DNA from: Chloropicon primus | Taxonomy: Eukaryota | Assembly: GCA_023205875.1 (NCBI GenBank) | Contig: CP060768.1 | Span: 434,001-498,000 of the forward strand | Direction: 5' to 3' | DNA length: 64,000 bases | Shown here: one piece after another, positions 730-35,214 of the stretch | Numbering within the stretch: the first letter of the stretch is position 1 | How the letters are laid out: every line of letters begins with the position of its first letter | Translations under genes and position numbers: made by a program | Notes under the pieces: generated by a model | What the model was told of the DNA's origin: nothing | What the model saw: the letters and a program-made list of their open reading frames with translations, nothing else | Databases searched by the model: none

Positions 730-1008
730 CTCCTTCACAGCAACCAGCCACGTGATCCCATCATCATCATCATCACAGACCCACCCCCCCAAAAAAAAAC
801 AAAAAACGCAAAGTCTCAGGGTCTCCCATCCTCCTCACGACGCCATTCCCTCCGAGTGAGGTGTCATTCGAAAGAGGATGAGACAAATCATGCGATGGTG
901 ACGCCTTCCTTCCCCCCTATCGTCCCCCTCGTCGCTGAGAACGACCTCGAACGTACCTCGTGCGCGCTCCTTTCGCTTCCCGCCACACAAGATCTCTAGA
1001 CCACAGGA

Positions 1009-1860
1009 TTGTTGGAGGTTTTCCCCTGTTGGTGGGATTCCAGTGTATACCAGTTTGGTCACACCCAAAGGACAACCCACAAAACGTTTTCTCGTTCTCA
1101 CTTGCTGGACAAGGCACTGGTAAAAAAACTAGCCTCGCGAGAGGAAGGGAGGAGGACGCCGAGTGAAACCCTAGCAGTCATGGCGCGATCAGGGAAGCGC
1201 CGTAAGAAAAAGGAGAAGCAGGGGAGTGGCTCGACGAGTTCCACAAGGAGGTCGCACTCTGGCGAGAGTCATGCTCAGGGCGCTTCGAAGTCGGGGCAGG
1301 AGTCTCCGACGACGGAGCCGTTACGTCGGTTCTGGAATCAGGGCTTGCAGTTGCTCTACTCGTTGTGCCTGCTTCCTATCGCGGACGACCCCGCCTCTGC
1401 GGGTGAGGGTTCGAGCACGCCTCGCAAGAAGCGGGGGCGGAAGCGGAAGGAGAAGCCGCTGGACGACCCCGCCTCTGCTTTCGAGGAGGGTTCGAGCACG
1501 CCTCGCAAGAAGCGGGGGGGGAAGCGGAAGGGGAAGCCGCCGGAGGCGGCTTCCTCTGCGGGTGAGAGTTCGAGCTCGTCAGGCAAGCCTCGCAAGAAGC
1601 CTCGCAAGAAGGGCAAGAAGAAGAACAAGAAGAAGGGTAAGAAGAAGAAGAACAAGAGGGGGAAGAAAGCAGGGAAGCAGCCGGGTGGCTTGGCGGACGA
1701 CAGCGTGAAGAAGACCTGGTTCTCATCGATCAAGAGAGAACTTGAAGAGGTAAAGTGTCCGAAGACGGGATGGAGGTCGTGCTTGAACCTTCCAGAAGAT
1801 TCTGTGGTATCCGTCGAGACATTGCAGTCGCCCGCCAAAAGGAAGAGGGGCAGAAACTGA
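1009..1860 (+). CDS. Lys/Arg-rich ORF with NLS-like repeats; probable N-terminal part of the Fanzor protein, out of frame by -1 (first ATG at 1180)
   Basis: Repeats of STPRKKRGRKRK, a poly-K tract and KKTWFSSIK; overlaps the Fanzor ORF by ~100 nt in a different frame. Confidence 0.5.
   Translation: MLEVFPCWWDSSVYQFGHTQRTTHKTFSRSHLLDKALVKKLASREEGRRTPSETLAVMARSGKRRKKKEKQGSGSTSSTRRSHSGESHAQGASKSGQESPTTEPLRRFWNQGLQLLYSLCLLPIADDPASAGEGSSTPRKKRGRKRKEKPLDDPASAFEEGSSTPRKKRGGKRKGKPPEAASSAGESSSSSGKPRKKPRKKGKKKNKKKGKKKKNKRGKKAGKQPGGLADDSVKKTWFSSIKRELEEVKCPKTGWRSCLNLPEDSVVSVETLQSPAKRKRGRN
1382..1610 (+). repeat. About three ~78-81 bp in-frame direct repeats
   Basis: Unit GGACGACCCCGCCTCTGC...GGGTTCGAGCACGCCTCGCAAGAAGCGGGG... 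at ~1383 and ~1461, with a degenerate third copy at ~1542. Confidence 0.85.
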
Positions 1861-3347
1861 AGACCTCCAAGCTATTGTCGGAGCGAACGGTGATACGGAC
1901 GAGGAAGCTGAGGATGCGCTTGAACCCTGAGCAGGCGAAGTGCCTTTGCAACTGGATGGGAGCTGCGCGTTTCACATACAACAAGTGTTTGGAGGCGGTC
2001 AAGAAGGAGGGTTTTCCGCTGGTTTGGACCGTCCTGCTGGACAGATTTGTGACGGCCAAACCGCGACGCCCTGAGGTCTTTGAGGGGCTGGAGAAAGAGC
2101 TGAAAGAAATCCAATGCTCTCCACGGCCATGGACAAAACAGGAGGCAGAGCTTTTCGCGGCCAGAGAGAAGAGACTCGAGAGCCAAATTGGAGGCAGACG
2201 ATTTCGCGCCGAAGTGGCCAAGGACCGGGACTACGTTAGCGGGGCCTTTGTAAATCAGAAGCATCCTTGGCTGAAGGATACCCCCTGTGCCATCAGACAA
2301 GCTGCCGTGCGAAGTCTCATCAAGGCATGGGATTCGAACATCGCGAAGCAGGAAGCGATGAAGGAGCGCGGCGAGGAGAAGGGGCACCGCTTCGTTCTCA
2401 AGTATCGTCAACGTCAGCAACCGAGCTCTTGGACCATTGAAATTGATGCAAGAGAGTTAAAGAACGTGGAGACGATCGAAAGGCCAAACACGAGGCACAA
2501 GGATGACACCAAGCACAACAAACGACGCAAGTGGACCAAGCTGGAGGTGTTCAAGAAGAAGATGGCCGGCGGGCCCCTGTACTTGACGGAGGAGATCCCC
2601 GGGGGCAAGATCGAGGGTGCCGTGAAGATCACAAGAAATCGCCTTGGGCAGTTCCACATGCACATTCCCATCGCGACGCCATGGGATCGCCTGCCACCCC
2701 TGAAGCCTGAGAACAAGCGGAAGGTTGTCGCCCTGGATCCGGGAGTCAGGACCTTTCAGACGTCGTACTCGCCGCAAGAAGGCGTCGGGGAGTATGCCAC
2801 GGGCGAGCGAGGCTTCGCGAGGCTGTTCAACCTCTGCTGGAGGATTGATGAGATCATTTCCGAGCGCAAAGACCCAAAGGTGAAGCTCCCTTACCTCGAC
2901 CGCCGCGACTTGAAGAGACAGCAATACGCCTGCATGGAGAAACTTCGAGGTCTGACGAACGAGCTTCACAAAAAGGTAGCCAACGATCTATGCAGGAGGT
3001 TCGACACAATCCTCCTCCCGGAGTTCAAGTCCCAAGACATGGTGAAGAAGAACAACAACGGGAGACGCCGAGTGATCAGGAAGAAGACGGCTCGCACGCT
3101 CTTGACGTTGAGGCACTATGCGTTCAGAACGTTCTTGGCTTCCAAGGTGCTCTTGCACGGCAGTGAGCTGGCGATCGTGACGGAGGAGTACACCTCCAAG
3201 ACCTGTGGCAGGTGCGGACACATCAAGGACAACCTGGGTGGAGCAGAGGTGTACAAGTGCCAGAAGTGTGGCTTCAAGTGCGGTCGGGATGTGAACGGGG
3301 CACGCAACGTCCTCCTGAAGCACTTGCGTCAACCAAAAAGTGTGTAA
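1755..3347 (+). CDS. Fanzor2 / IS607-family TnpB-like RNA-guided DNA endonuclease
   Basis: N-terminal OrfB HTH-like RTRKLRMRLNPEQ...WMGAARFTYN; RuvC-I KVVALDPGVRTF; RuvC-II FDTILLPEF with the rearranged Glu in VTEEYTSKTC; zinc ribbon CGRC...CQKC; RuvC-III RDVNGARN. Confidence 0.93.
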   Translation: MSEDGMEVVLEPSRRFCGIRRDIAVARQKEEGQKLKTSKLLSERTVIRTRKLRMRLNPEQAKCLCNWMGAARFTYNKCLEAVKKEGFPLVWTVLLDRFVTAKPRRPEVFEGLEKELKEIQCSPRPWTKQEAELFAAREKRLESQIGGRRFRAEVAKDRDYVSGAFVNQKHPWLKDTPCAIRQAAVRSLIKAWDSNIAKQEAMKERGEEKGHRFVLKYRQRQQPSSWTIEIDARELKNVETIERPNTRHKDDTKHNKRRKWTKLEVFKKKMAGGPLYLTEEIPGGKIEGAVKITRNRLGQFHMHIPIATPWDRLPPLKPENKRKVVALDPGVRTFQTSYSPQEGVGEYATGERGFARLFNLCWRIDEIISERKDPKVKLPYLDRRDLKRQQYACMEKLRGLTNELHKKVANDLCRRFDTILLPEFKSQDMVKKNNNGRRRVIRKKTARTLLTLRHYAFRTFLASKVLLHGSELAIVTEEYTSKTCGRCGHIKDNLGGAEVYKCQKCGFKCGRDVNGARNVLLKHLRQPKSV

Positions 3348-3520
3348 CTCCTCAGGGTTGCACATACGTTTGTTAGTACGGGCTGCCGTGCGTGGGCGGA
3401 AGTATTCGTTCATGTACGGTGGAATGGTCGTGGTAGGGCCGAATTACCCTGCCGAGAAACTTACAAACTCGGTGAAACGACCTTTGCAGAAAACTAACAG
3501 GTAAGTAGGGGCCGGACGGT
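3340..3520 (+). ncRNA. Fanzor omegaRNA: scaffold to ~3500, predicted guide from ~3501; the 5' end may overlap the ORF
   Basis: Conserved with the second copy up to AAAACTA(A/G)C(A/G)G, then abruptly divergent. 18-bp G-U-rich stem at 3383-3422; GGTCGT/ACGACC pairing (3426-3431/3477-3482); TTTGTTAGT/ACTAACAGG pairing (3369-3377/3493-3501). Confidence 0.8.
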
Positions 3521-3938
3521 TCTCTCTTTCAGTGGAAAGGAGAACTTGCCTTTGTGCTTCCAGTATTGACTGTGATTTTCCTACCGTCCTTTCGTGACTT
3601 TTCTGTGTGCTGTTTTTGATCTGATGTCTGAACACCATAACAAGGATTTTCAACCCTCCTAACAGAAATTTGAAATTTGAAATCGATCCCCCCCCCAAAA
3701 TCCAAAATAGGTTTTCATTCTCTGCTCTGCTCGTCGGGGTCGGCCAAGAGAGGGAAGCTTTGGTGAGGGTTTTGAGTCCGAGGACGATACGTGAGGCTCC
3801 AAAGGGCGAGGTCTCGTGAAAGATTGTCTCGTGGGCTTTCGTTCGACACCTCATTTTCTCGATTTGGTGACCGGAGTGCGTCGGTGGACGGGGCGTTGTT
3901 GGCGAAAGACCACCACCTGACCTGAGGAGAGGGAAGCC

Positions 3939-4385
3939 ATGACGATCAAGTTTATCTTGCTCGTGAACAAGCAGGGCCAAACGAGGCTCGCCAAGTACAC
4001 GGATGAGTTCCTGACGGTGGACGAGAGGACGATGCTGGAGGGGGAGATCGTGAGGAAGTGCCTGAGCAGGACAGAAAGGCAGTGCTCTATCGTTCAGCAC
4101 AGGAACTATAAAGTGATTTACCGGAGGTATGCTTCCCTTTTCTTCCTCGTGGGCGTGGACGAGGAGGAGAACGAGCTCGCCATCATGGAGTTCATTCATT
4201 GCGTGGTGGAGACCATGGACAGGTATTTCGGGAACGTGTGCGAGTTGGACATCATGTTCCACATAGAAAAGGCTCACTACTTGCTGGACGAGATGCTTGT
4301 GAACGGCACCATTCTGGACACAAACAGGTCGAATATTTTGACCCCGCTTCAGATGCTCGACAAGGCCCAGCAGTCCTCTTCCTGA
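3939..4385 (+). CDS. AP4S1: AP-4 complex subunit sigma
   Basis: IKFILLVNKQGQTRLAKY, YRRYASLFF, ENELAIMEFIH, FGNVCELDIMFH. Confidence 0.92.
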   Translation: MTIKFILLVNKQGQTRLAKYTDEFLTVDERTMLEGEIVRKCLSRTERQCSIVQHRNYKVIYRRYASLFFLVGVDEEENELAIMEFIHCVVETMDRYFGNVCELDIMFHIEKAHYLLDEMLVNGTILDTNRSNILTPLQMLDKAQQSSS

Positions 4386-5274
4386 GGTGGACCCGCCCAA
4401 GACTGAACAGTTTTAGCGCGGCGCGAAGGCACTGGCGATGATGACGGCGGCCGCAGGAGACGTCCGTGTGGTTCCGTTTGGCTTCGACGACGCGGAAGGG
4501 GAGGCGGGAAAGGGCCCGAGGGTGTGAAGGCGAGAGGGTACGTACATAAATGCAAATGTATTCCATTACTTATATTAGGGTCTCAATCGCCATTCTCAGG
4601 AAGAGCAATCCGTTCGTTTTCATTTTTATTTCTGTCACGCGTGCTTGCTGGAATCTAAATACTCCTCTGTCTCTTTTGCCCGGCGGCATCCCCTTCGGTT
4701 CTATTGTCTGCTGACGCAAGCAGTCCAGTGTCCCAAATTGGTCTTCACACCGACTGAAGAGGGAGCTTGTCCTTGTCCTCACAACACGAAATTACACCTA
4801 CGGACCAAGCCCCCCCCCTGCTCGACACCAGTTGCTTCCCCGCTTCCGCGGCTTCGGACTACACTAAACAAAAAACGAACACCGCAACGGAAGCAAGCGG
4901 AAGGCAAACAGAAACCGAAGCACCAAGTCTTGACCTATCCCGAGAGACCTGCATCCTGCAAAGCCAGAAAACTTGCTGGATGTGGGACAAAAAAGAGCAA
5001 AGACAGCCACAGATCGTAAATTCCCTCTCCTCCTCTACCACCACCGCCGCCAAACAACACACGCGCGCATTCATTCGTTTTGCTCTCCGCCGACTAGACG
5101 AATGCCACCCACCCTCATTCTTCCAAGGACCCCCCGCCTCGCCTCCAATAAGCTACTCCAACATGCTGATTTCAATCCCCTCACCCCCAAAACCCAGAAG
5201 TGCGCCGCAAGACCCACCCGCTCGCAAGCGAGAACAAGCGCGCAAGATTTCCTCCGTCACCACAGAGGAGTTTC

Positions 5275-31229: not shown

Positions 31230-31390
31230 CATGCCCATGGCCTTTCTTTCCGCTAGTTTTGTGCAAAGGTCGTTTCAGTTTGCGTTTCTCGAAATGACCA
31301 TTCCGCCCTTAGCAAGCAAGCAAGCTCGCGAGCAAGGGCAGCTCGTACTAACAAACGCGTGTGCAACCCTGAGGAGTTACAGATTTTTTG
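31230..31390 (-). ncRNA. Second Fanzor omegaRNA (scaffold ends ~31250; predicted guide from ~31249 downward)
   Basis: Same conserved blocks as copy 1 (TAACTCCTCAGGGTTGCACA, TTTGTTAGTACG, GGAATGGTC, GAAACGACCTTTGCA) with structure-preserving substitutions. Confidence 0.75.
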
Positions 31391-31632
31391 GTTCCCACAA
31401 GTGCTTGAGAAGGATGTTGCGTGACCCGTTCGCATCCCGACCGCACTTGAAGCCACACTCCTGGCACTTGTACACCTCTGCTCCACCCAGGTTCTCCTTG
31501 ATGTGTCCGCACCTGCCACAGGTCTTGGAGGTGTACTCCTCCGTCACGATCGCCAGCTCACTGCCGTGCAAGAGCACCTTGGAAGCCAAGTACGTTCTGA
31601 ACGCATAGTGCCTCAACGTCAAGAGCATGCGA
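31377..31632 (-). pseudogene. 5'-truncated Fanzor fragment (catalytic Glu, zinc ribbon and RuvC-III only)
   Basis: LLTLRHYAFRTYLASKVLLHGSELAIVTEEYTSKTCGRC...RDANGSRN, nearly identical to 3092-3347; homology stops abruptly at ~31632. Confidence 0.92.
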
Positions 31633-31974: not shown

Positions 31975-32031
31975 CTTTAGGATTGCTTTTGGGGGATTAG
32001 GATTAGGATAGTCTTTAGGATCGGCTTAGGA
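31975..32031 (-). repeat. Degenerate telomere-like (CCTAA/TTAGG) repeat patch
   Basis: TTTAGGATTG...GGATTAGGATTAGGATAGTCTTTAGGATCGGCTTAGGA; 18 bp identical (inverted) to 37914-37931. Confidence 0.75.
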
Positions 32032-34837
32032 GTCCTGTAGCATCATGTTGACGAGCATTGGATGCGGGGTCACTACCTCTTTGGCCTTTCTGTTCTCGGA
32101 CTTCTGCCGGCCGGAGCCAACGTTCACGCCGCCTCCTTCTGCGTTCTCCTTGTACCCCTTGCCGATTTTGCAATCGTTATGGCTGCAGGACAAGCACCTC
32201 AAGCCCCTTGAACCGTTGGTTGGGATCAAGGGGATCGAGGGGATCTTCTCGATCAAGGCTTTCTCGGACTCAGGTTTCTTTGTACACGGAACACAAAACC
32301 AGAAGCCAATCGTGTTCTTCAGTTGTGTCATGCCAATTTCCTTGCTCATGTCCCAAAGCTCCTTCTTGTCGACAGACTCCGTCGCTTTCAAGAAGCATCC
32401 GAACGAACACCACTGGTTAAAGCCGCTTTTGAATATGAAACGATGGCAGTACCAGCACCAGTTCGACAAGAGGTAAGTGGGATTGTGCCCAGCTCGATCA
32501 CGTTCCTCCCCCGGAACCGGTGTCAGAGCTCCTGTTTTGACCAAGGGGCACTCAGCGTGGCCAAGATAATCACAGCAAACACAGCGCAGAGCTTGAATAC
32601 CGTCTGTAGTAGGAACTTGAGGAAACTCCTTCATCGGCTCCCTTGCTTTGGTCTTCCTCTTCCCTTTCGTGTTGGTCTTGGCCTGTGTCTTCCTTGTCGT
32701 ACCAGTGCTCAAGGGACTGCTGCTGCAACGTTCACAGGGACATGCAGCGGCATCAAATTTGCGAAGCTCTCTCTCCCTCTCCCCGCCGTCCTCGGCGTCG
32801 CTGTCCACCAGAATGCAAGGACGACTCCTCTTGCACATGTCACAACCACAAATGCATCGAGTATGTGCTGGAGCGGTGTTCGCGGTGCCTGTTGTCCTGG
32901 ACGACTTGCGAGAGCATTTACCAGCGCAGGGGCATTCGAAGAAATCTTTTTGAGTCACAGAGATCGCGGTTTCTGGGAAACATTCATTCTCAAACACGAC
33001 ATCGACATGTTCTCCCTTTAGTGCATCCGCAAAGTACTCAAAGACTCTGCTCAATGCGTCTTCATCCAAGCCGTGTCCATCACGGTTTTCAAACAACTCG
33101 TCCCTCACGGAGTGAACGTGGCAGTATTGCCTGTAGGTCTCCAGGAACTCCATGTGCTCCTCGCGAAGAATGATGTCGTAGTTCGCTTCCGTGATGGAAC
33201 AAGCAGCGACGAGCACACGAACTGTGGGTTGGTTCTTCCATGCGCGGACGAGATCACTCGCCCGTTGCTCCACAAAGCGCTTTCCAAGAAGATACTCCTC
33301 ATCTCCAGCGAGAACCTGGGCTACGGCCTCTTGAACGTGTCTCTCCTCGGTGACGACGGCATCCACTTCTGTCAAGCACGCAACCGTTGCTATGTTCGCC
33401 TTACAGCACCTTTCCAAGAGCGTCCCGAGCGTCGCAAGCTCCCTTGTAAGCCGATCTGCACGGGTGCAGAGTTCTGCGTATTTGCCCTCGTCGCAGACCT
33501 TCTTCACCCATTCTTGGACGGCAGCCTCCTCCGAGGTCGAGCCTCTGCAAAGGTCCCAATTGTGATTTCAATCACCGGCAGCTTCCGCTTAGCGCAACAT
33601 CCTTCTGAAGGTTGTCGCGCACCTTGAGAGGACGTGGAGGAGTAGGCACCGTTGGACATATATCGAAGTAGACTTGGCGACGTCAGTTCCAGGCGACGTA
33701 CGGGCAATACCTACGAGGAGAAGGGGTTTCCCGTGCTTCTGCTCCCCCGGCTTCTCCAGATTCTCCAGCTTGTGCCTCAGGACGTGCTCGACGTGTTCGA
33801 CGAGGAGACAAAGTTCCTCAGAAGTGTGTTGGCCCGATGCTACAGAACAACGGGTGGCGCCGGACTTGAGCATGCAGTGCGACGCCGAGTACACGGCTTG
33901 CCCGTCCGAGGTGCTTGCAGCCTTGCTCATGTACTTTTTGAGCTCCTCTTTCTTTTCCTCCCCAATCAAAGCTGCTGCATGGGACGTCGGGATACACGCC
34001 AGTATAGAGGCCTGCCCTGCGCGCTCAGCAAGGTAGTCGAGGTCCTTGTAAGCTTGTGGCCGTCTCGACAATCGCGACAAGGCAGCTACAAGAAGCGCGC
34101 AAGGCTCGCCCTTCTCCTTCGCAAGGGCAAGAGCTTTCGTAAGAACTTTGCGGTCCTTGAGGCATCGCGAGCGGCTGGCGGTCCCAAGCTCCACGAAACG
34201 AAATGCTTTCACCTGTTTAGGAAGATCTTTGCCGAGCAACGCGCTTGAGATCGTGGCCGCCTGACCAGCGAGCTTGTTCCCAAGCCCCTCCTGCACAATG
34301 GACTCGCGGAGGAAGACGATGCAGTGGGTCAGTCCTTTCAAGCCCTCAACGAGCTCCAGGTAGACTCCGCCACGGCCTCGGACCACGCGGACCAGGGTCA
34401 GCTCCTCAGGCTGGCGAGTTCGCTCCGCCCGTGTACCCTCGCGTGCAAGGGTGGGCCGCGGGCCAGCTGATTCGTCTGCGAAGCGAAGAGAGGCAATAAG
34501 TCCATCCGCATTGAGAAGCGTCGTCGGATCCACGTTTTCCTCGATGGCGGCCATCTCCCGCTCCCTATGAGGTCCCGCGGAGGTCGCCATGGCCACTGTG
34601 CAAGCGTTGGTGTCCAGGCTTGCCGCACGGCTGCCCGCTGCCCTGCAAGTGGGTGAAGACAGAGACATTGGCACCACAATCCTTGGGCGCCACCCGCCAT
34701 CCTTGGGCGCCATCCCCCTGGAGAACCGCGGCCGGGGTGGCGCCACCAGCCCCTTCTTCACATGACGTCCCAGTATTCGTCAGTCTCCTCTTCTTCGTCG
34801 GCAACCCGCGGCTGTAGTATTCCAGGAGGTAACTCAT
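32026..34837 (-). CDS. Spliced gene with two tandem serine-recombinase (resolvase-like) catalytic domains and C-terminal Cys-rich zinc-finger modules; intron 33545-33622; 5' end uncertain
   Basis: Domain 1: CIVFLRESIVQ...AGQ...FVE...DRKVL...LLVAALSRLSR. Domain 2: LVGIARTSPG...SIYVQ...LCTRADRLTRE. A 78-nt GT..TTTGCAG intron removes the only two in-frame stops between ORFs 33589-34761 and 32026-33507. Confidence 0.7.
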
Positions 34838-35122: not shown

Positions 35123-35214
35123 CTCACCCAGGCGGGGTCGAACCGCCGACCTCCCGATTTCTCCCGATGAGGGGATAACAGTCGGACGCTCTAACCAAAC
35201 TGAGCTATGGGTGA
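35123..35214 (-). tRNA. trnN: tRNA-Asn(GUU) with a 17-nt intron (35159-35175) at the canonical 37/38 position
   Basis: Acceptor TCACCCA/TGGGTGA+G, D-arm AGCTCAGTTTGGTTAGAGC, anticodon arm TCCGA-CTGTTA^A-TCGGG, T-arm GGCGGTTCGACCCCGCC. Confidence 0.93.

Follow-up and report, generated by a model that had tools for sequence, protein, structure and literature searches.

Splicing of the right end of a Chloropicon primus Fanzor2* element and its possible part in making the guide RNA

How does a Fanzor nuclease obtain its guide when the scaffold of its omegaRNA ends well inside the transposon that carries it? The question is raised by a locus of the tiny marine green alga Chloropicon primus, in a stretch of 64,000 nucleotides (nt) of contig CP060768.1 (assembly GCA_023205875.1, positions 434,001 to 498,000), which we call the window and number from its first letter. 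The locus holds a non-autonomous element of 2633 base pairs (bp) with a gene for Fanzor2, a eukaryotic TnpB. An original prediction, made from the letters alone, had described an apparently intact Fanzor2 whose native guide starts at about 3501. We find that the right end of the element is spliced out in assembled transcripts at two loci, and we propose, with a probability of roughly 0.55, that this terminal GT-AG intron assembles the guide RNA, its removal bringing the pseudoknot scaffold next to flanking host sequence. The spliced right end is the new part of the finding; the Fanzor2* family is already known.

The splice joints were read from contigs of four sequencing runs, X1 from DNA and X4, X5 and X7 RNA-like. 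One contig of X4 passes from 3498 to 3643, skipping 144 nt, and a cut shifted by +2 gives GT..AG ends. No such joint is listed for the DNA run X1; its record 8 passes from 3618 into the flank without being spliced. The second locus emerges from two runs taken together. Record 31 of X7, which retains open reading frame (ORF) and scaffold, extends from mid-ORF at 2520 to 3501 and continues in letters that X5 places behind the right end of another copy. As the continuation begins right after the AG of the target-site duplication (TSD), this pair points to splicing at a second locus, again with the TSD AG as acceptor. A third contig of X4 departs at 3500 into other sequence. X4, X5 and X7 resemble RNA in having zero depth over 774-910, where X5 shows the intron joint of a neighbouring gene and X1 is covered; contig depth served solely as this RNA/DNA control and for the element ends, not for copy number or expression. 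The RNA-like and DNA runs come from different samples, and each joint is given by side stretches of 25 letters without the stretch in between.

The plus strand of the element has a single GTRAGT (window background 0.00025 per nt), the GTAAGT at 3501, which sits directly behind the pseudoknot strand. In the rows available for two published copies with different flanks, GTAAGT is kept behind the scaffold and the bases behind the donor vary. The mean host intron, 152-154 bp in the text available for PMC12301720, is near the 144 nt removed here. The acceptor AG is the start of the right TSD, and four of the five right junctions begin with AG (the window, the X5 and X4 loose ends and a chromosome 3 row of the published data); the fifth has AG at TSD positions 3-4. 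With 3501-3644 spliced out, the right end is gone and the scaffold is followed at once by flanking DNA. Two observations concern other members of the family. A loose end at 1780 in X4 and X5 belongs to an internally deleted or variant member in which 1780 is joined to the scaffold end CTAACGG and then GTAAGT, a short 'ghost'-like form keeping the splice donor. Public gene models P0006, P0147 and P0136 fuse Fanzor C-termini to downstream host exons, one of them of a SET-domain gene, which would fit other copies having an acceptor at their right end or farther downstream.

That 3501 lies inside the element follows from the ends. The best pair of TSD and terminal inverted repeat (TIR) in a scan of candidate ends is AGGAT followed by TGTT at 1005-1013, with AACA followed by AGGAT at 3639-3647. 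DNA-run depth goes up in the bin 911-1047, stays at repeat level through 3650 and returns to flank level behind it. Because the element ends at 3642 with a TSD, 3501-3642 is element DNA, as the repeat depth and the GTAAGT of the two published copies also indicate, and the predicted start of the native guide turns out to be the 5' splice site of an intron within the element. In the rows available of Supplementary Data 8 of PMC6731263, whole elements of 2664-2707 bp are listed as heterozygous insertions three times; one row begins with the left end found here and two with the right end reversed. They show that the family moved recently and that empty alleles exist. The empty allele of the window locus was not seen in X1, X4, X5 or X7.

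The scaffold itself had been placed correctly, at about 3345-3500. This stretch folds with a z score of -3.48, better than 200 of 200 shuffles, and in a second, 5'-truncated family remnant in the window 3 of 31 pairs are compensatory. The complementary stretches TGTTAG (3371-3376) and CTAACA (3494-3499) make up a predicted pseudoknot that was compared by motif among three distant scaffolds; both strands are kept in L047, with one compensatory A-U to G-C change, and in L048. These two closest metagenome relatives end in CYAACGG at the point equivalent to 3500, and the L048 scaffold end runs directly into an open, host-like reading frame. The similarity of the remnant stops at the base equivalent to 3500. 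In the Fanzor2 described in the available text of PMC11832414, the pseudoknot is formed with the bases at the very end of the scaffold, -4 to 0, beside the guide. Since the ends of the relatives, the second remnant and the position of the ApmFz2 pseudoknot agree, we place the ancestral scaffold-guide junction at 3500. A 3' omegaRNA with a terminal pseudoknot can be recognised here at the level of sequence; a search of Rfam over 900-3800 returned four weak matches, all far under gathering scores. A reading in which CTAAC at 3494 is the branch point for an acceptor AG at 3499-3500 was rejected, because these bases form the pseudoknot strand and 3501 acts as donor in the observed cut. On a virus-like contig, two gene-less, reversed copies of the right end (L049:770-860 and 1340-1430) were seen by eye upstream of a Fanzor gene.

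We propose the following course of events. An IS607 element with overlapping TnpA and a GG end would have lost TnpA and been enclosed by new TGTT...AACA ends, which would have pushed the scaffold 142 nt from the flank. The intron would restore the ancestral scaffold-guide junction, with GATTTTCAACCCTCCT as the predicted guide at the window locus. Full-length siblings of 722-723 amino acids (aa) would bind and trim the spliced RNA and cut empty alleles beside a target-adjacent motif (TAM) ending in AG, favouring copy-back of the element by repair; TnpB of IS605/IS607 has been shown, in the accessible text, to promote restoration of the element after cutting. The window copy would supply only guide RNA in trans, unless a missing G in its gene, discussed below, is an assembly error. 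The most far-reaching form of the proposal, taken as a whole, is about an even bet. In it the spliceosome is a required step in guide making; the element, once captured by a TIR transposon, gained a terminal intron with its donor at the ancestral IS607 end and the insertion-site AG as acceptor; one target-site AG acts as insertion preference, 3' splice site and TAM end; and Fanzors had a second route into eukaryotic transposons, beside folding of the TIR into the scaffold. This would be the reverse of IStrons, in which splicing destroys the guide.

Several observations weigh against guide assembly by splicing. The main difficulty is self-recognition. The occupied right junction keeps the AG and the whole protospacer, differing from the empty site only upstream of AG (A versus C at the window locus); without splicing, the guide next to the scaffold would match every copy behind CAG; and in a copy with ACAGA, neither acceptor nor protospacer differs between occupied and empty alleles. 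The only complete empty site that can be read is that of the window locus. The terminal TAACA could form an alternative pseudoknot core of 5 bp without splicing, the complementarity of the pseudoknot taken alone is weak evidence (P 0.03), its motif pair occurs in just 2 of 80 metagenome loci, and neither of these two, L047 and L048, has a clear terminal intron. The absence of AG from the last 79 element bases (3564-3642) is likewise weak evidence (P 0.02-0.05). The joints are read from assembled contigs, one per joint, of runs (X4, X5 and X7) whose RNA nature is the guess of a tool, and intron-retaining contigs, in pieces at 3520-3647, are also present in X4 and X5.

The alternative that survives best, though we consider it unlikely, is that the intron is real but incidental, the working omegaRNA being an unspliced RNA of about 300 nt with TIR and TSD folded into its scaffold, as proposed for Fanzor1 and mollusc Fanzor2*. 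For Fanzor2*, Yoon et al. 2023 predict a scaffold that includes TIR and TSD, and a 2026 review, in its available text, has the 3' TSD forming part of the scaffold in reported structures. The terminal TAACA(AG) is able to pair with 3369-3375, and compared with that scaffold model the spliced contigs lack TIR and TSD, while the unspliced contigs of X4 and X5 would suit it. Against this, the alternative pairing loses a G-C pair that is kept in L047, L048 and the second copy. The stretch 3501-3644 is unstructured (z -0.22, versus -3.48 for the scaffold) and differs among copies by microsatellite-like indels, and the donor sits exactly at the ancestral end.

Slightly less probable again is that the intron serves host tolerance or mRNA processing, taking the right end out of transcripts that read through into the gene downstream, much as an introner or an intron in a 3' untranslated region (UTR) would, with RNA-guided cutting either lost or achieved by an RNA ending at 3500. 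From 3645 to 4580 the spliced X4 contig does run on into the adaptor-chain gene, covering its 5' UTR and coding region, although a contig is no proof of one transcript. Many family copies are broken, and if there were no cutting the problem of self-targeting would vanish. On the other side, the catalytic triad is kept in 23 of the 24 family proteins compared from outside the window (all but P0124), nine of which have 722-723 aa, and the scaffold shows compensatory changes. Removal of only 144 of 2633 bp would leave an interrupted host gene unrepaired.

It seems very improbable that the join from 3500 to 3645 reflects, instead of splicing, DNA lost in some strains or an error of assembly. Such a reading could be argued from single contigs with sides of 25 letters, a guessed library type, RNA and DNA runs from different samples, and the presence of an intron-less remnant in the window (31250-31632). 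Yet the ends are exactly GT..AG with a consensus GTAAGT donor, the same donor is used at two loci in two studies, and the join is not listed for X1, just as a host intron behaves in the same runs. The least credible account is that of the original prediction, an intact Fanzor2 of about 530 aa in an element ending at 3500 with the guide GTAAGTAGGGGCC...: the scaffold does end there and a 477-aa ORF with three catalytic residues is open, but 3501-3642 is multi-copy element sequence followed by a TSD, which refutes 3500 as the element end, and the N-terminal domain, which in the published account of ApmFz2 completes RuvC and grips pseudoknot and DNA, is out of frame.

Coordinates of the features discussed, in window positions
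Feature	Positions	Strand	Evidence
Left TSD, AGGAT	1005..1009	+	best TSD and TIR pair in candidate-end scan
Whole non-autonomous element, 2633 bp, termini TGTT...AACA	1010..3642	+	end scan, depth, published insertions
N-terminal half of Fanzor2 gene	1180..1860	+	basic low-complexity stretch and conserved FWN..LP..WFS..KT.WRS domain
Relic of IS607 serine recombinase TnpA, overlapping frame, with stops	1233..1856	+	tblastn
Four G against five in the family, a frameshift of one base	1847..1850	+	contigs and family proteins
Fanzor2 core (HTH/REC, WED, RuvC D331/E480/D515, zinc finger)	1847..3347	+	profiles, alignments
omegaRNA scaffold (predicted)	3345..3500	+	folding z, compensatory pairs, end of similarity to second copy
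Pseudoknot 5' strand TGTTAG (predicted)	3371..3376	+	pairs with 3494-3499
Pseudoknot 3' strand and scaffold end CTAACAG	3494..3500	+	equivalent to IS607-type end CYAACGG of L047/L048
144-nt GT-AG intron over the right end; acceptor AG 3643-3644 from right TSD	3501..3644	+	contig joints
Right TSD, AGGAT	3643..3647	+	end scan
Predicted native guide after splicing, GATTTTCAACCCTCCT	3645..3660	+	first exon bases behind observed joint; putative guide role
Second, 5'-truncated family remnant: last 84 codons and scaffold ending GG	31250..31632	-	similarity to P0003 and window scaffold

The assignment of the gene to Fanzor2 with a rearranged RuvC site stands. The stop-to-stop frame 1746-3347 on the plus strand (533 aa) gives the hidden Markov model matches expected of it, to HTH_OrfB, with its helix-turn-helix (HTH), at E 6e-7 and to the TNB zinc ribbon (PF07282) at E 3e-18; with the guided_TnpB profile it scores 99.2 bits, just below the cut-off of 100 bits. 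Every motif that had been named was borne out: the DPG motif of RuvC-I (ALDPG, D331 at 2736), a proline in place of the canonical RuvC-II Glu (P425, 3018), the alternative Glu E480 (3183), the CxxC pairs at 487 and 505, and D515 of RuvC-III (3288). Fanzor2 is defined by a catalytic Glu six residues ahead of the zinc finger with a residue other than Glu at the canonical position, and E480 aligns with the Glu of the VNEY of ApmFz2. The mimivirus Fanzor2 9b0l is the top solved-structure match of the frame (E 1.7e-20) and the first fold match (E 1.4e-16) of a predicted model of the sibling P0003, whose predicted local distance difference test score is 68. The gene does sit among ordinary host genes, its neighbours being a kinase and, at 3939-4385, a small chain of an adaptor complex.

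As written, the window copy is frame-broken: its N-terminal domain is cut off from the core by one missing G, and neither 'apparently intact' nor a core of about 530 aa describes it. The family proteins have 722-723 aa and start at the position equivalent to ATG 1180. The window ORF from there, 93% identical to residues 1-226 of the 723-aa P0003, ends by frameshift in the stop 1858-1860, and the first ATG downstream of the break, at 1914, leaves 477 aa with all three catalytic residues; the window core is 98.5% identical to P0003 over 477 aa. Contigs of all four runs (X1, X4, X5 and X7) carry an extra G behind 1846. Of the 24 family proteins compared from outside the window, 18 read through this point and so have the N-terminal domain in frame with the core, and the other six are without the N-terminal motif. 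The missing G may be a homopolymer error of the assembly rather than a mutation, a distinction limited by contigs that collapse copies and lose rare variants. The frameshift weakens the word 'intact' and leaves membership of the Fanzor2 family untouched. An intron bridging the break was discarded, since family proteins read through with one more G even though GT..AG pairs exist, and no splice joint is listed there in the contigs of the four runs; programmed frameshifting was ruled out on the same grounds. In the available text of PMC11832414, the N-terminal domain of ApmFz2 completes RuvC and contacts pseudoknot and DNA. Within this domain, at 1383-1660, tandem expansions of 78-87 nt encode a Lys/Arg-rich low-complexity insert of about 110 residues, which is absent from relatives of 52-56% and differs in length among copies.

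The first 34 or so codons of the 533-aa frame belong to a dead TnpA reading frame. The TnpA frames of L047, L048, L050 and L051, which in these relatives overlap the Fanzor N-terminus, match 1010-1900 in tblastn with best E values of 3e-7 to 2e-4. Instead of an intact serine recombinase the element holds this relic with stops, and instead of the GG crossover ends without TSD of an IS607 element it has a 5-nt TSD and a TIR. It shows the features of Fanzor2*, namely a TGTT/AACA TIR, AGGAT twice and no intact transposase inside. Its TGT...ACA ends (1010-1013/3639-3642) and 5-bp TSD resemble those of integrase-type DDE elements, Ginger among them, a possible lead to the missing transposase; the analysis identified none that would mobilise the element.

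The nuclease is no discovery in itself: the window element is the published C. primus Fanzor2* TIR element. Its closest proteins, at 98% identity, are C. primus entries named 'putative IS605 transposase', and the top protein cluster has 46 members, among them the 723-aa representative P0003; family detail covers the 15 members listed. Lemieux et al. 2019 (PMC6731263) report 25 such genes with RNA-seq depth in the text available. Yoon et al. 2023 (10.1101/2023.08.09.552727; PMC10711439) place the C. primus family in the Fanzor2 clade in their main text, list family proteins as Fanzor in Tables S3/S5 and describe how a non-autonomous TIR transposon, with a TSD of 5 nt and without a known transposase, captured Fanzor2*; as Fanzor2* is curated there, the nuclease family was already known. 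Among viral contigs, protein relatives were confirmed for 0 of 146 and 0 of 100 candidates, and 46 viral-contig loci with the 15-nt scaffold-end pattern were taken as chance, their matches spanning only 15-33 nt.

The second remnant in the window offers a view of an end without the intron. Its 84 codons are 86% identical to P0003, and behind its scaffold there is no GTAAGT donor, intron or TIR. Its variant hairpin has a match in a loose end of X5. The remnant may have kept the end of an IS607-type ancestor, or it may have arisen by retrocopying from a spliced transcript. About 2 kb upstream on the same strand lie a Cys-rich orphan ORF (32026-33153, minus strand) and an ORF with a weak Resolvase match (33589-34713, minus strand; E 0.002). 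The latter has only two homologues, one from C. primus, and shows no significant similarity to the TnpA of the relatives (E 0.51). A tRNA-like sequence seen by eye near 35130-35210 adjoins the two ORFs, and together these features are possibly a decayed mobile or viral insert.

How does this arrangement compare with known systems? Chloropicon Fanzor2* of Yoon et al. 2023 is the same family, non-autonomous with a degenerate TIR and a 5-nt TSD. There the TSD is called highly variable and TIR and TSD are proposed to fold into the scaffold, whereas here they are spliced out and four of five TSDs start with AG; the main texts, figures aside, contain 'intron' and 'splic' 0 times. ApmFz2/ApmFNuc (PDB 9B0L; PMC11832414, text available) shares the rearranged RuvC, the N-terminal domain and the pseudoknot at the scaffold end, but has an IS607 context, a GGG TAM and an unspliced omegaRNA, and measures 520 aa against 723 aa, with 18% identity in the fold alignment. 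Among marine-metagenome IS607-type relatives of 39-56% protein identity (L047, L048, L050, L051), all with the N-terminal domain overlapping TnpA, the TnpA frame is open: whole in L050/L051, and in L047/L048 without the N-terminal DNA-binding part. L047 and L048 have the same pseudoknot strands as the window element. The scaffolds of these relatives end in GG with no GTAAGT donor behind.

Mobile introns invite a further comparison. Introners use spliceosomal splice sites that a DNA transposon brings along or borrows, one of them from the TSD. They are removed whole from host mRNA; the joint here removes only the terminal 3501-3644. In IStrons (10.1101/2023.11.20.567912; PMC13565253, text available), splicing and guide RNA use the same right end, with the 3' splice site at the boundary, and a self-splicing intron spans the whole element, so that splicing and omegaRNA use are exclusive. 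The window element shows no sign of a group I ribozyme over its whole length, with no Rfam match near threshold in 900-3800; its intron is a GT-AG one of 144 nt, which strips the right end only and would make, not destroy, the guide. The literature covered (among it PMC10530073, PMC10432273, PMC11423790, PMC13565253 and the IStron preprint; without figures, bioRxiv supplements and subscription papers) contains introns inside Fanzor genes and group I IStrons, and in it we found no spliceosomal intron between scaffold and guide.

Outside the element, an inverted repeat of 30 nt (77%) at 857-886 and 3824-3853 brackets it symmetrically; its pattern has three matches in the window against 0.16 expected. 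It is possibly a motif common to two divergent host genes, or an older element hit by the Fanzor insertion.

In print, working guides in eukaryotic TIR transposons are explained by a scaffold into which TIR and TSD fold. For tests of this family, the 722-723-aa protein and a scaffold ending at 3500 are needed; boundaries taken from the genome only give the wrong guide. The alga can be cultured and has about 25 expressed copies, some heterozygous, which makes the claim of guide assembly directly testable. If that claim is true, the AG bias of insertion sites would be explained, and a guide assembled by the spliceosome would be a solution available to eukaryotes only, bringing nuclease activity under the control of splicing.

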